From a virus (Duplodnaviria > Caudoviricetes), in IMG/VR virus record IMGVR_UViG_3300026962_000010, positions 1 to 38,388 of that record: DNA of 38,388 bases, one strand, 5' to 3'. The translations under genes and the position numbers were made by a program. Shown here in pieces: positions 31,810 to 38,371 of this stretch. A model generated the notes under the pieces. The model worked only from the letters and a program-made list of their open reading frames with translations, was not told where the DNA came from and did no database searches. The first letter of the stretch is position 1. The number at the start of each line of letters is the position of its first letter.

Positions 31810-33267
31810 TTATCTGATGTTGCCTTTGGTGGGCGAGTTCCCGGAGCGCCGGCGGACGGACTTCCCGACGCCGTCCAGCCGGTCGCCGTGTCCGTGCCGC
31901 GCCCAGTTCGCAAACGCCATTCCGTCCGGCCAGTCGTCGTGGCCGCCAGCCGGCGCTTCGTACTTCGCCTTCCCCGTCGGCGTGAACGACTTCTCGAGTT
32001 TTGTCGTCTGCCGGATGAGCTTCCGGTGGTTCGGCAGCGCTAGCTCGTCGTCCTCGAGGTCGGCAATCAGCCGCTGGTAGATGTTCTGCTTCGTCTTGTT
32101 CGAGCTGGTGACGACGCGGATGACGGAGCCGAGCCCGGCTTCGGCGAAGTCCGCTGCGAACCCGCCGACGCCGTTCTCCTCGATGAGGATCGTCTCGTAC
32201 CCCGAGGACGGCGTCGCGCCGCTCCCCGTCGCCGGCGACGGCGTCGACGCCCAGTGCTCGAGGTCGGGTTTGCCCTGGTGAAGGATTTCGAGCAGTTCGA
32301 CGAACCGCGGACCGCCCATCGTCTCGAACGCCCAGATGTTCCAGTACGTCCCGGCGGCGTCGATGTCGAAGACGACCATCTCGTCGCTGCCGCCACGCGC
32401 CGGGTCGATGCCGAGGTACCGGCCGCGCCCCGGCTGCCGGTCGACGTCGGGTCGGATGTTCGGCTTCAGCGTCTCGTGCGGGATCGCGGAGTTGCCGTCT
32501 TCGGCGAACTCACCCTCGTACTCTTGGGCGAACGTCTCCGAGTCCAGCTTCTTGCGCTGCTTCTCGATGTAGGACTCCTGGGCGTACGGGCTGATGCGCG
32601 TCGGCCAGTGTGGGCTGTACCAGTCGTCGTCCTGCGTGACTTTCCGGTAGTAGTACCCGGATTTGCCAGCGGGCGTCGAGAAGAGGCAGTACTCGAACAC
32701 CGGATGGGTGATGAAGAACTGCTCAATCTCTTCCTCGTAGACGACGTCCTTCTCGTAGGCGGCCTCGTCGACGATGACGCACGTCGGGCTCTTCCCGCGG
32801 TTCCCCGGCTGGTCCTCTTGGCCGACGTTCCCCAGCGTTCGCGAGAGCAGCCGGGTGCCGCTGGAGAACTTCCACGTCTGCTCGTTATCCTTGACGACGC
32901 CGTACTGCTCGAGGGAGAGTGGCCCGTCGCGGAAGCGCTGTTTCGCTTCCTCGAACATCTCGTCGGCAGTCTCCTGAGCAGGCGCCGTGAAGAGCACGTC
33001 AGTCGGTTCGCCGACGAGCTGGGGCGCCCAGAGGGCGTGGTCGGCGCCGATGGTGCCCGCAGTCATCGTCGCCCCGACCTGTCGGCCTTTCTGCGGGGCG
33101 GCGTGGGCGGCGTCCTCCTGTTCGAGGTAGTCGAGGAGCTCTGCCTGGTAGTCCGTCGGTGTCCAGTCGAAGAGAATCTCGACACGCTCGGACCGCGGGA
33201 GGCCGACGCACTTCTGGTAGAGCTGACGGAGCGGCGACTCCGAGTTCGAGGTAGGCTTCGTGCTCAT
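31810..33267 (-). CDS. terL: Terminase large subunit
   Basis: TDYQ Q-motif, KGRQVGAT deviant Walker A, VIVDEAA Walker B, STP coupling motif, GIDPA and HDDWPD nuclease motifs; start ATG 33267. Confidence 0.95.
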   Translation of the reverse strand: MSTKPTSNSESPLRQLYQKCVGLPRSERVEILFDWTPTDYQAELLDYLEQEDAAHAAPQKGRQVGATMTAGTIGADHALWAPQLVGEPTDVLFTAPAQETADEMFEEAKQRFRDGPLSLEQYGVVKDNEQTWKFSSGTRLLSRTLGNVGQEDQPGNRGKSPTCVIVDEAAYEKDVVYEEEIEQFFITHPVFEYCLFSTPAGKSGYYYRKVTQDDDWYSPHWPTRISPYAQESYIEKQRKKLDSETFAQEYEGEFAEDGNSAIPHETLKPNIRPDVDRQPGRGRYLGIDPARGGSDEMVVFDIDAAGTYWNIWAFETMGGPRFVELLEILHQGKPDLEHWASTPSPATGSGATPSSGYETILIEENGVGGFAADFAEAGLGSVIRVVTSSNKTKQNIYQRLIADLEDDELALPNHRKLIRQTTKLEKSFTPTGKAKYEAPAGGHDDWPDGMAFANWARHGHGDRLDGVGKSVRRRSGNSPTKGNIR

Positions 33268-33983
33268 GATTCGTCCTCGATGATGCTCGCGAGGTCGCCG
33301 AAGGCGTCCGCCTTCTGGGATTCGGGGTCCTCGAGCAGGCCGAGGTCCTTTAGCCACTGCCGACGATCCGTCGAGAGTCGCTTCTGTGCCGACGCCACCA
33401 CCGACTCACGGTACTTGTGCTGGTCGATGAGGCGCGGGAGCCCGTCCCGGTCGGTGACGGACTTCTTCGTCGTCTCCTTGTCGACGAGCGGATGCCCGGA
33501 TTTGAGCTCCTCGGGCTTCTCGTTCGCCCACCGATCGAGGCCGATGTCCTTCGCGTGTGTCACTGCGACGCGGAACAGCTCGGACTCGATTCCCAACGGC
33601 GGCTCGCCGTGGCGCTCCCGGTACTCCTCGATGTAGTCCGCGAAGACGTCGTCGACGAACTGGCGGAGGTCGTCGTCGAGGACGTCCTGGTAGTAGGAGT
33701 TCGCGTCGGCGTAGGCGCCGTGGGTGACGGCGTTGGTGTTGTCCTCGGGCGCGCCAGCGTTCTCGCGCTCGCCGCCCGAGCCGCCGGCGCCGCCGTGTTT
33801 GCTGCACCGCCCCTCGCCGACGTGGTCGGTTCCCTTCCCCGGCCAGGCGCCGCAGTAGCCGGCGAACAGCTTCTCGCCGTCCTGCTTCTCCCACCGGCGA
33901 CCCATGCAGGACTCGTCGGTCGGGTCCTGCTGCGGGACTTGGTCGAGCGGCTTGCCGACCAACTCTTCTTCGTTGACGTTCAT
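33264..33983 (-). CDS. terS: Terminase small subunit
   Basis: GRCSKHGG, GAPEDNTNAVTHG motifs; coupled upstream of TerL. Confidence 0.8.
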   Translation of the reverse strand: MNVNEEELVGKPLDQVPQQDPTDESCMGRRWEKQDGEKLFAGYCGAWPGKGTDHVGEGRCSKHGGAGGSGGERENAGAPEDNTNAVTHGAYADANSYYQDVLDDDLRQFVDDVFADYIEEYRERHGEPPLGIESELFRVAVTHAKDIGLDRWANEKPEELKSGHPLVDKETTKKSVTDRDGLPRLIDQHKYRESVVASAQKRLSTDRRQWLKDLGLLEDPESQKADAFGDLASIIEDES

Positions 33984-33997
33984 GGGGTCGATTGTTT

Positions 33998-34399
33998 TCA
34001 GGAGTCGAGGCCGAGCGCCGCGAGCGCGGTCTGCGTGCGGTTCGACGGCGTGTAGCCAGTGATGAACGCGCGGCGCGTCGCGGCGGACCAGGGGACGTCG
34101 TCGCCGCCCTCGGTGTCGGGTAGCGAGAGGTCGACGACGGCATCATCGTCGGCGCGACGGAGGAACCAGTGCGCACCGTCGTACGCCGGATCGACGTCCG
34201 CCCAGTCGAGTCGGTAGACGTCGTACGCGCCGACGCCGCCCGTCGCGTGGAAGTACGTCTCGGCCAGCAGGTAGCACGCGCCCTGAACGGGATCGACGTC
34301 GTCGTAGTCGTACTCGTCTTTTCGGACGTCCGGGTTCTCGCGGACGTACTTGCGGAGCTGTGCCGCGATGTCGTCCGGCTCGACGAGGACTTCAGCCAT
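33998..34399 (-). CDS. Putative Cys-His-Asp (transglutaminase/papain-like) enzyme
   Basis: GACYLLAE...AHWFL...VVDLS spacing. Confidence 0.55.
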   Translation of the reverse strand: MAEVLVEPDDIAAQLRKYVRENPDVRKDEYDYDDVDPVQGACYLLAETYFHATGGVGAYDVYRLDWADVDPAYDGAHWFLRRADDDAVVDLSLPDTEGGDDVPWSAATRRAFITGYTPSNRTQTALAALGLDS

Positions 34400-34619
34400 C
34401 GCCGTTCTCCTCGCCGCCCTGGAGATCCTGCGCGGCGTCGACGCCCTGGCCCATCGCGTCGCCCCAGAGGTAGTAGCCGGCGCCGATCGCGATCGCGGCA
34501 GCGGTCAGCAGGATCAGCGTGTCGGGCTCGCGACCGGCCCACTCCATCGCGAGGTACGTCGCGATGAACGCCAGGAGGACGAGCCCGGCGACGATCGTCC
34601 GGATCGGTCGGGTGCGCAT
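34392..34619 (-). CDS. Small 2-TM protein (holin-like by size and position)
   Basis: 75 aa, basic N-terminus, two hydrophobic helices, acidic tail. Confidence 0.68.
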   Translation of the reverse strand: MRTRPIRTIVAGLVLLAFIATYLAMEWAGREPDTLILLTAAAIAIGAGYYLWGDAMGQGVDAAQDLQGGEENGDG

Positions 34620-34622
34620 CGG

Positions 34623-34907
34623 CTAGTTCTCTTGCCCGTCGTTGTTCGTCGGCGTCTCTTGCATCAGGAGGTACTCCGCGACCTCCGGGCCGCTGAGTAT
34701 CACGGCGATCAGGGCGAACGCGTTCAGTGGCGGTGCGCCCAGATGCATCGCGTAGACGCCGGCGCCGACCGCCACGAGCTGCGTGATCGCCTTGATGATC
34801 TTGTAGGTGCGGAAACTCATCCCGAAGGTACTCCTCAGCGTGTTGTCGAGTCGGTCGTTACAGTCTCGGATATCGGACCCGAGGGTGCGGTGATCGTTGG
34901 TGGCCAT
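34623..34907 (-). CDS. Small 2-TM membrane protein
   Basis: MATNDH...KIIKAITQLVAVGAGVYAMHLGAPPLNAFALIAVILSGPE; ATG 34907. Confidence 0.72.
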   Translation of the reverse strand: MATNDHRTLGSDIRDCNDRLDNTLRSTFGMSFRTYKIIKAITQLVAVGAGVYAMHLGAPPLNAFALIAVILSGPEVAEYLLMQETPTNNDGQEN

Positions 34908-34928
34908 AGGGTCATGCAGGTCGTCGAA

Positions 34929-35116
34929 GGGCCGCCTGGGGAGTTGCACCCCGCGCTCGGAGAGCGCACTGGGAGCGGCCGAGGCGGCGGGCAGGAGTGC
35001 CGGACGCGACCACACGCGGGGTCTTGGGTTCGCCGTATGTTGGGGCTAGCCCGCCGCTCGTCGAGCGATGCAGACCCTCGGCCTCCTCCGTTCGGGAGTC
35101 CAGACGGCGTCATCGG
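34929..35116 (-). ncRNA. Candidate structured RNA ending in a tRNA-like mini-element
   Basis: Non-coding gap with multiple perfect complementary arms and a GGGG-UGCAACU-CCCC T-arm mimic (see findings). Confidence 0.55.
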
Positions 35117-35123
35117 GGCTGGC

Positions 35124-35300
35124 TCAGGCAACGTCGGGGTCGATCGGCTCGACGTCGTCGGCGTCGACGCCGAAGCGGTGGCCCGCGATCTCGACGCTGT
35201 AGATCACCGTCCCGTCGGCGCGGGTGTCCACGTCGACGACGTCGGCGACGCGCTCCTCGCGCTGGAGTGGCGAACAGCGGACACGGTGGGGGTAAGGCAT
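35124..35300 (-). CDS. Small beta-rich (SH3-like) protein (58 aa)
   Basis: MPYPHRVRCSPLQREERVADVVDVDTRADGTVIYSVEIAGHRFGVDADDVEPI. Confidence 0.65.
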   Translation of the reverse strand: MPYPHRVRCSPLQREERVADVVDVDTRADGTVIYSVEIAGHRFGVDADDVEPIDPDVA

Positions 35301-36000: not shown

Positions 36001-36225
36001 TCAGGTGTCGAGCTCGTAGCGGTGGCCGCGGGCATCCGCCCAGCGTTGGGTGACCTCGAGCAGGCCCGCCTCGCCGAGCCGCAGGAGTGCATCGTCGACG
36101 GTGGACTCCGGCGCGGCGGTGATCTCGACCAGCTCCGGCTGGGTGCAGGGGCCGCGCTCTTGGAGGACGTGGGCGACGTGGCGGGCCGCCGGCGGGAGGT
36201 CGGCGTCGACGGTGAGTGGCTCCAT
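36001..36225 (-). CDS. Winged-helix (MarR/TrmB-like) regulator
   Basis: LPPAARHVAHVLQERGPCTQPEL......STVDDALLRL...GLL......DAR...Y. Confidence 0.85.
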   Translation of the reverse strand: MEPLTVDADLPPAARHVAHVLQERGPCTQPELVEITAAPESTVDDALLRLGEAGLLEVTQRWADARGHRYELDT

Positions 36226-37426: not shown

Positions 37427-37761
37427 CGCAGGTCACCCCCGAACAGGTCCTCGGCCGTCGTGTCCGACTCGATCGCCTCCGGATCCACGTCGACGCCGGC
37501 GTCGCGCCCGTCGACGAACGCCGGGTGGTCGCCGCCCATCGCCTCGGCGGCGCCGATCGCCCAGTCCACCTGCGAGGGCGTCAGCCCCGTGTTCCGCACG
37601 AACGCCGCCTCGAGCGTGTGGGCCATCGGGCCCGAGAGCCATGCCTGCTGGTTGTACTGGTAGAGCTCCACGAGCAACTGGTTGAGCGGCGTCGGGTAGG
37701 TCCGCATCAGGCTCGCGACGATGTCGTCGTCGCCCTCATCCGCGCCGGCGGCGCTACTCAT
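37423..37761 (-). CDS. Hypothetical protein (112 aa)
   Basis: MSSAAGADEGDDDIVASLMRTYPTPLNQLL...; SD GGAGGTG upstream. Confidence 0.68.
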   Translation of the reverse strand: MSSAAGADEGDDDIVASLMRTYPTPLNQLLVELYQYNQQAWLSGPMAHTLEAAFVRNTGLTPSQVDWAIGAAEAMGGDHPAFVDGRDAGVDVDPEAIESDTTAEDLFGGDLR

Positions 37762-38371
37762 CGTCCTCACCTCCGTCGAAGTCCGCCAGCGGCCGAGCGT
37801 AGATCGTCGCGTCACACCGACACGAGCCCTCGCAGTCGGGACACGGCGCGTCGTCGTGGACGGCGTAGTACTCCTCCACCGTCGCGACGGCGTGGAAGTC
37901 GAACGCCTCGAACAGCGGGCGGCTGTCGTGGTGGCCGTCGCGGTGCCACGAGATGCCGACGACGCCGTCGACGTCCATCGCGGCAAGCCACTCGAGCCGA
38001 TGCCGGACCAGTTCGGTGCCGACGCCCTGGCTCTCGTACTCCTCGTCGACGACCAGCATGTGGTGGATGCCCGTCCGCTCCCACGGCTCGAAGTCGACGT
38101 CGACCTCGATGTAGTCCTTGGCGTACTCGCGGTCGACGATCGTCGCGATTGCGAACCCGGCGATCGTGAGCGCGCTGGGTTTCAGGACGAACCCCTGCGT
38201 GGGTTGGTCCACGTCGACCCGCGCGTCGTGCAGCCACTGGTCGGCGTGCTCTTCGACGGCGCCGAAGCGGTCCAGCCACAGCTCGCGGCAGCGGCTCTGG
38301 TGGCACTCCTGGAGCGGGACGATCATCGGGTAGTCCGGCGAGACCGTGTCGACGCGATCACTCATCGTCAT
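37754..38371 (-). CDS. GNAT-family N-acetyltransferase with C-terminal Cys cluster
   Basis: LVVDEEYESQGVGTEL acetyl-CoA motif A, LFEAFDF, CPDC..SCRC. Confidence 0.85.
   Translation of the reverse strand: MTMSDRVDTVSPDYPMIVPLQECHQSRCRELWLDRFGAVEEHADQWLHDARVDVDQPTQGFVLKPSALTIAGFAIATIVDREYAKDYIEVDVDFEPWERTGIHHMLVVDEEYESQGVGTELVRHRLEWLAAMDVDGVVGISWHRDGHHDSRPLFEAFDFHAVATVEEYYAVHDDAPCPDCEGSCRCDATIYARPLADFDGGEDDE

Follow-up and report, generated by a model that had tools for sequence, protein, structure and literature searches.

A predicted t-element-like RNA, preceded by a kink-turn-like module, ahead of the packaging genes in tailed viruses of haloarchaea

The t-element of haloarchaeal 5S rRNA (Holzle 2008 as cited in PMC4326828 and PMC7714728) is the first point of comparison for the element studied here. 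A preliminary description of this locus had named it as a precedent, and the cited sources agree that the host 5S t-element is cut by tRNase Z and that t-elements are also cut by RNase P (PMC4326828, PMC4946936, PMC7714728). As described in the literature cited here, t-elements act on rRNA in haloarchaea, on organellar transcripts or on long non-coding RNAs, and mascRNA and menRNA are released from longer transcripts as tRNA mimics (PMC4919922). Archaeal mRNAs have been described as not further processed (PMC7531240), and for long halovirus transcripts, processing has been reported in phiH1 and suggested in HF2 (PMC8707807). Haloviruses of the HF1 group possess an aberrant 'tRNA-Pro(TGG)' before terL (PMC7230728); PMC7911831 is further comparison literature. 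The present element was found undescribed in a literature search, on whose verdict of novelty Holzle 2012 (which may list t-elements before mRNAs) and supplementary motif tables may bear.

The window, i.e., the whole stretch of 38,388 nucleotides analysed, is a linear 38-kb record of a tailed virus in which the genes for the terminase subunits (terS and terL), portal, capsid and tape-measure proteins are all located on the minus strand. The host is most likely haloarchaeal, since homologues of the element occur in Haloarcula proviruses; element-bearing proviruses are present in cultured Haloarcula strains, loci L130, L136, L148 and L151 being from Haloarcula lysogens. On the minus strand, the element occupies 34980 to 34929, in the interval between the gene for a 58-aa protein (35124–35300, minus strand) and the gene for a 94-aa membrane protein (34623–34907, minus strand), a putative holin and the first gene after the element. 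The distance of 21 nt between the discriminator at 34929 and the ATG at 34907 is as previously reported. A second membrane protein of 75 aa (34392–34619, minus strand), a 133-aa gene and terS (33264–33983, minus strand; phrog_9231, E 1.5e-37) come next, and beyond terS the minus strand continues with the terL, portal, capsid and tail genes. Further upstream, the minus strand encodes a small winged-helix protein (36001–36216), MarR-like below the cut-off, and an acetyltransferase-like gene (37754–38371). Several homologous loci likewise have a winged-helix-like gene upstream of the element, a candidate late regulator.

The tRNA-like domain (34929–34980, minus strand) was defined by sequence, fold and pair counts on 11 and 19 homologues, and we regard its structure as real with very little reservation. 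The minimum free energy (MFE) fold of the 52 nt is the structure originally drawn, with −29.1 kcal/mol (z −2.24; equally good folds in 4 of 200 shuffles; z −1.30 for the plus strand). It consists of an acceptor of 6 bp (34980–34975 with 34935–34930), a middle stem of 5 bp (34966–34962 with 34958–34954), a T-arm with a 4-bp stem and the 7-nt loop already noticed in the preliminary description (34952–34938), and a discriminator C at 34929 with no encoded CCA behind it. The acceptor had been counted as 7 bp, a reading rejected here because the seventh pair is present in only 2 of 11 homologues. The single hairpin of the earlier model is present, but is 5 bp long, its outer pair being found in only 7 of 11 homologues. 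The lack of an anticodon loop was correctly noted: the middle loop varies from 3 to 21 nt and contains no conserved anticodon. Unlike in tRNA, a 2-nt bulge separates the 4-bp T-stem from the 6-bp acceptor in the acceptor/T helix. The distance from the T-loop to the discriminator is 12 nt, as in tRNA, in 17 of 19 core variants and 13 nt in the other two (L191 and L195). G+1 is found in all 19 core variants, CCA behind the discriminator is absent in all 22 loci compared, and the acceptor sequence is variable among homologues. In a longer context (111 nt and 202 nt) the MFE of the window itself takes other helices, so folding energy alone is not decisive; the whole tRNA-like domain is kept in the MFE of 8 of 11 full-length homologues. 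A structural descriptor (T-arm, acceptor 12–13 nt away, middle stem and matching linker dinucleotide), written after the element was known, has the element as its sole match in the window, and finds 3 matches in 40 Markov-resampled 38-kb controls.

Homologues were sought with sequence patterns, covariance models and protein-led searches. The T-arm 15-mer matched 119 loci in viral contigs (28 of 64 parts scanned), only two of them true homologues; many of the rest are T-arms of phage tRNA or tmRNA. Narrower patterns gave 8, 24 and 31 loci in viral, genome and metagenome contigs, the covariance model was run on two samples of 151 genomes from the class and from the family to which G001 belongs, and two further viral scans contributed to the set. 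Most pattern matches were rejected as chance or ordinary tRNA, including tRNA and tmRNA T-arms and Streptomyces coding sequence, as were the weak model matches L192–L194, L198 and L201. The result is a set of 19 distinct core variants in haloarchaeal tailed viruses and proviruses, from which the window itself (L179) was left out, plus five divergent loci. A BLAST search against 50,697 phage records returned chance-level short matches only. Searches led by the 94-aa protein returned the window's own protein alone and no related locus, and the terS-led search returned one truncated locus. Nine regions of isolated haloviruses with a homologous membrane or terS gene contain no match to model R1 (best 9 bits), a statement that covers those stretches alone (BJ1, CGphi46, HRTV-4, HRTV-29, HRTV-DL, HRTV-DL1, BLv36, HATV-3 and Humcor1). 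Sequencing runs gave neutral results: no RNA data set was listed for them, and the single contig compared spans the downstream gene but not the element.

The acceptor stem covaries among the 11 and the 19 homologues, the check that the preliminary description had proposed for the fold. Across the 19 variants, 97.9% of cells are paired, three pairs are changed on both sides and none of 500 shuffles reaches the score. L191 and L195 are misaligned by one column, which accounts for the six unpaired cells. The near-invariance of the T-stem and middle stem is partly a consequence of the search patterns, which fixed those stems.

The linker AG (34969–34970, minus strand) occupies the place of a D-loop, with equivalents of A18 and G19 predicted to contact G55 (34947) and C56 (34946) of the T-loop. 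The earlier statement that a D-arm is absent is thus right as to the D-stem and overlooks this D-loop mimic. In the 19 variants, AG occurs with G55 in 13, GG with U55 in five (including L190), AG with U55 in one (L195, the single exception to the rule) and GG with G55 in none, a 13:1:0:5 distribution with a naive Fisher p of 5e-4. A maximum likelihood tree in which those columns were masked requires three changes for the GG/U55 state; the well-supported branches force only one change of the 18/55 state, and the loci are mosaic. Genome G109 contains two proviruses (L191 and L195) whose near-identical elements differ at T-loop base 55. As a control, 67 distinct tRNAs predicted by ARAGORN in the fetched loci were inspected, 63 of them with a T-loop match: YAG was found in the D-loop of 12 of 12 tRNAs with G55 and GG in 50 of 51 with U55, a control that is asymmetric because 23 of the 51 U55 tRNAs also carry YAG. 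We read the linker/T-loop swap as a mimic of the tRNA elbow, the tertiary contact being predicted from these base combinations. Phage tRNAs with a UGCA T-loop (L015, L066, L079, L103 and others) carry AG instead of GG in the D-loop in 12 of 12 cases, a pairing of which the literature search found no description.

By the sequence features that mark a t-element, the locus is predicted to work like one. It has an acceptor-like stem, a T-arm and the 12-nt ruler; the D-loop/T-loop elbow contact is seen at sequence level as 18/55 covariation in 18 of 19 variants, whose independence is limited; and there is no CCA behind the discriminator. Three other identities were considered and rejected. It is not a tRNA, as there is no D-stem, the middle loop is of 3–21 nt, ARAGORN predicts 0 genes and there is no Rfam match. 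A tmRNA is contradicted by C3–G70 in 19 of 19 variants, the missing CCA and the negative ARAGORN result. An attP-type tRNA fragment was dismissed because host tRNA matches reach only 30–31 bits and the neighbours are membrane and terminase genes. No Rfam 15 family reached its gathering score on the window, ten homologous loci or the five divergent loci; the best relevant match was tRNA-Sec on L270, with 27.5 bits against a cut-off of 47. Three weak model matches (L197, L199 and L200) are genes for host tRNAs; they have a UUC anticodon and an acceptor and T-arm similar to those of the element, and represent a possible origin of it.

The element forms the 3′-terminal part of a conserved structured RNA of about 190 nt (35121–34929), of which the upstream kink-turn-like and hairpin domains are absent from the preliminary description. 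The RNA fills the whole intergenic gap, because the stop of the 58-aa gene (35124) lies only 3 nt before the kink-turn-like module. This module (35071–35121, minus strand) contains a C-stem, a GAU bulge, tandem G.A and A.G pairs, a C.C pair and a short stem, and a second kink-turn-like motif (35108–35081, minus strand) is nested in it. The conserved motif GCAUCG (35066–35071, minus strand), seen in alignment A3 and in the patterns, follows. Helix B, a stem of 8–9 bp with a variable loop (35057–35049 with 34992–34984, minus strand), ends about 4 nt before the acceptor. It has 6–9 contiguous pairs in 21 of 22 loci, being absent in L180, and shows compensatory changes in the window relative to other loci. 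Among 21 distinct instances of the kink-turn-like module, GA/GA was found in 19, C.C at 3b.3n in 16 and a 3-nt bulge in 19; a Watson–Crick stem of at least 2 bp directly behind the core was found in 11 of 21, representing five sequence types. The sequence features of a kink-turn as defined in PMC5061560 (a C-stem, a bulge of 3 nt, tandem G.A and A.G pairs and a stem behind them) are thus present, and the module is a predicted L7Ae site.

In 401 genomes of the class of G001, the T-arm pattern and the upstream pattern match the same eight places in seven genomes, and the reversed-pattern controls gave 0 and 1 matches. This shows linkage and not frequency, as four of the seven genomes are seeds and the patterns were made after those matches. 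The kink-turn pattern alone found 16 loci in a viral scan (four known, four new and eight dropped as chance, by eye and for want of an R1 match rather than by the descriptor) and seven places in genomes (six known and one new). All five new loci are divergent and have a T-like arm 12 nt from an acceptor-like stem of 6–9 bp, compared with 28 of 270 control stretches; the 12-nt distance was required by the descriptor, and the controls include true elements. In three of the five, the T-loop is a canonical UUCRA and GG is present in the linker or in a D-like hairpin, and two (L265 and L274) have the non-canonical T-loop CGAGACC. All five precede small membrane genes, three of which belong to phrog_18714. 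Enlarged forms were observed in L278 (about 1270–1500), where a 207-nt tRNA-like domain contains a D-like hairpin and a long insert, and in L265 and L274 (about 1300–1410, with the CGAGACC loop). Long C/A-rich unpaired tracts occur in the middle loop (L123, L130, L196, L219 and L227), in the kink-turn loop (L157, L170 and L227) and in the spacer (L265 and L274).

These domains raise the possibility of a cis-regulator that is not cut at all, whose kink-turns (through L7Ae) and tRNA elbow would bind a host or viral protein and control transcriptional read-through or the way in which the first late gene is translated. The three domains occur together in all eight places in the 401 genomes, which is more than a cleavage signal needs, and L7Ae controls archaeal mRNAs via leader kink-turns (PMC5539422, PMC6298567). 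The alternative folds in the long-context MFE of the window and the recurrent C-rich unpaired tracts are consistent with such a role too. We nevertheless consider it unlikely: the 12-nt ruler and the closed acceptor end, features read by processing enzymes, are kept even in divergent loci, AUG codons cluster directly behind the discriminator, and there is no conserved alternative pairing, an alternative CGAUG/CAUCG helix having been rejected as broken in L122, L170, L191 and L227.

The link of the element to packaging genes is the firm part of its genomic context. Where the sequence reaches, the order is element, small membrane genes and then terminase genes, which belong to at least four PHROG families in the terS slot and two terL families. 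Proteins similar to the 94-aa protein, as judged by eye, follow the element in L123, L148, L227 and L286. The exceptions to the membrane-gene context are L168 and L180, where the element (L168:1752–1816 and L180:2487–2551, minus strand) directly abuts a terS-like fragment (phrog_21336) and the flanks switch at the element ends; in L180 the upstream domains are absent as well. These junctions possibly result from deletion, recombination or an assembly chimera. In addition, CRISPR arrays in metagenome loci L155, L162, L167, L182 and L183 contain a 36-nt spacer that matches the core of the L128-type element without any difference; TTC lies directly 5′ of the protospacer. The elements of L168 and L180 differ from this spacer by one C-to-T change, which keeps the pair as U.G and is possibly an escape variant.

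Sites of packaging initiation (pac) are often located in or near terS. It is conceivable that the locus acts as DNA, serving near terS either as the start of packaging or as a recombination site, or that it is a relic of the 3′ end of a host tRNA-Glu, with an incidental fold. The weak model matches to host tRNA-Glu (three loci, 30–31 bits) and the exact switch of the flanks at the element ends in L168 and L180 agree with this. The G.U wobbles in homologues, however, fit the minus strand, on which the element lies, and the 18/55 swap and kink-turn geometry are tertiary features of RNA. Moreover, the element stands before the different terminase families given above, and no integrase was found among the neighbours scanned around it. 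We rate a role in DNA or a relic as very improbable.

Seventeen of 19 variants have an AUG no more than 13 nt behind the discriminator, against a background of 0.12 per site. In 11 of 19 variants, amounting to about three or four lineages, it lies 1–6 nt after the predicted cut. All 11 begin an ORF of 9–20 codons, the stop of which overlaps the start of the membrane gene as ATGA or TGATG, and translational coupling at such overlaps has been demonstrated in Haloferax (PMC6728339). The window belongs to another class, with an out-of-frame AUG at +13, opening a predicted ORF of 26 codons (34835–34915, minus strand) that overlaps the membrane gene, and the main AUG at +21; it is not leaderless. 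The first AUG is 54–76 nt away in L265, L270 and L274 and at +48 in L195, and L168 has none nearby. In BJ1, HRTV-DL and HRTV-DL1, which lack the element, the homologous membrane gene is also coupled to a short upstream ORF. Hence, the coupling is not specific to the element, and only the position of the first AUG at the predicted cut is new. According to PMC7531240, 72% of Haloferax mRNAs are leaderless, and a 5′ triphosphate may aid leaderless initiation, whereas a processed 5′ end is a monophosphate. Searches of PHROGs, Pfam and the Atlas matched neither of the two membrane proteins of the window to a holin, and L195 is the sole homologous locus with a PHROG holin (phrog_27838), as the second gene after the element. 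The identity of the membrane genes as a lysis operon and the timing of the late mRNA, both suggested earlier, are hypothetical.

The reading to which we give slightly better than an even chance is that of a tRNA punctuation mark, at which tRNase Z, and probably RNase P, would cut and so make the 5′ end of the late mRNA. Transcription would occur by read-through from upstream, because both flanking genes have the same orientation and the gap shows no evident AT-rich promoter; a sigma-70 promoter scan, a method ill-suited to archaea, gave 0 sites. The transcribed element would fold a tRNA elbow, and tRNase Z would cleave after the discriminator (34929). In variants with an AUG 1–6 nt past the cut, a leaderless mRNA would result, and the short first ORF would hand ribosomes to the membrane gene via ATGA/TGATG coupling; in the window, the cut would leave a leader of 21 nt. 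Cleavage by RNase P before 34980 would let the upstream mRNA end in helix B and an L7Ae-bound kink-turn, which may protect it, like MALAT1 after the removal of mascRNA.

The same cuts could instead serve the RNA that they set free, in which case the 52-nt tRNA-like piece or the RNA of about 190 nt plus CCA would be a decoy or sponge and sequester host proteins with an affinity for tRNA elbows or kink-turns. A self-contained structured RNA that occupies an entire intergenic gap is compatible with this, larger versions occur (the 207-nt tRNA-like domain of L278), and mascRNA and menRNA are set free in this way (PMC4919922). The element is single-copy and always in one genomic place, its acceptor sequence is variable and there is no conserved anticodon loop, and we find such a function improbable. 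The tRNA decoy of the preliminary description, in the form of an anticodon decoy, is unlikely in view of the middle loop of 3–21 nt; the missing anticodon loop and the variable acceptor indicate that the RNA is neither a translation tRNA nor a bait for anticodon nucleases.

If the punctuation mark is cut as predicted, a viral mRNA would be matured by host tRNA-processing enzymes, and translation in archaea could begin at a processed 5′ end. Such cutting would also suggest how long halovirus transcripts are processed, and would give the so far unexplained tRNA-like sequence ahead of terL in viruses of the HF1 group a role that can be tested. A wider proposal, which we put forward only tentatively and consider rather doubtful, is that haloarchaeal tailed viruses start late expression by RNA processing and not from a late promoter, with a kink-turn-gated tRNA mimic that recruits host tRNase Z, a leaderless mRNA and a short-ORF relay to membrane and packaging genes. 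Were it true, different tRNA mimics in the same slot (the element family, its enlarged forms and the 'tRNA-Pro' of the HF1 group) would represent a general strategy of archaeal viruses, and processed 5′ ends could start translation in archaea. What appears to be new, as far as comparative sequence analysis can tell, is a covarying t-element-like family, including a tertiary base swap, ahead of the packaging genes in many viruses of haloarchaea.

The stemless D-loop, the T-arm and a helix replacing the anticodon arm are also found in the tRNA-like domain of tmRNA and in D-armless mitochondrial tRNA-Ser, and the viral element resembles both in these respects. Unlike tmRNA, it has no G3.U70 alanine identity, no encoded CCA and no tag reading frame. 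In plant mitochondrial t-elements and tRNA punctuation, and in MALAT1/mascRNA, a tRNA mimic likewise sets RNA ends via RNase P and RNase Z (PMC1920247, PMC4919922), but these systems are eukaryotic or organellar and have no kink-turn module. The tRNA-Pro of the HF1 group shares with the element a tRNA-like sequence in the packaging cluster. It is annotated on the plus strand in the HF1 and HF2 records (L287:2358–2428 and L288:2132–2202); the TGG loop and T-arm, however, have their sense orientation on the strand of terL. There the sequence begins 4 nt after the upstream stop, lacks CCA and is separated from the terL AUG by 17 nt. It differs from the element in its full cloverleaf with a D-arm and a 7-nt anticodon loop, occurs in another virus family, where terL is the very next gene, and has no match with model R1, so that it is not an R1 homologue. 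The host 5S t-element was recognized in three of six fetched loci (L258, L261 and L262), with a short acceptor, a stemless GG linker and a T-arm, and 13 nt from the T-loop to the 5S start, the same ruler as in the viral element; the 5S upstream regions of L256, L257 and L260 have no canonical T-loop at that place. Both elements combine a short acceptor, a stemless linker and a T-arm with 12 nt plus a discriminator to the downstream RNA, and both lack CCA and an anticodon. The 5S version features a YGG linker and a UUCGA T-loop, whereas the viral one adds a middle hairpin of 5 bp, often A18/G55, a 4-bp T-stem with a 2-nt bulge, and the upstream kink-turn and hairpin domains. The 5S t-element precedes an rRNA, and the viral element precedes an mRNA.
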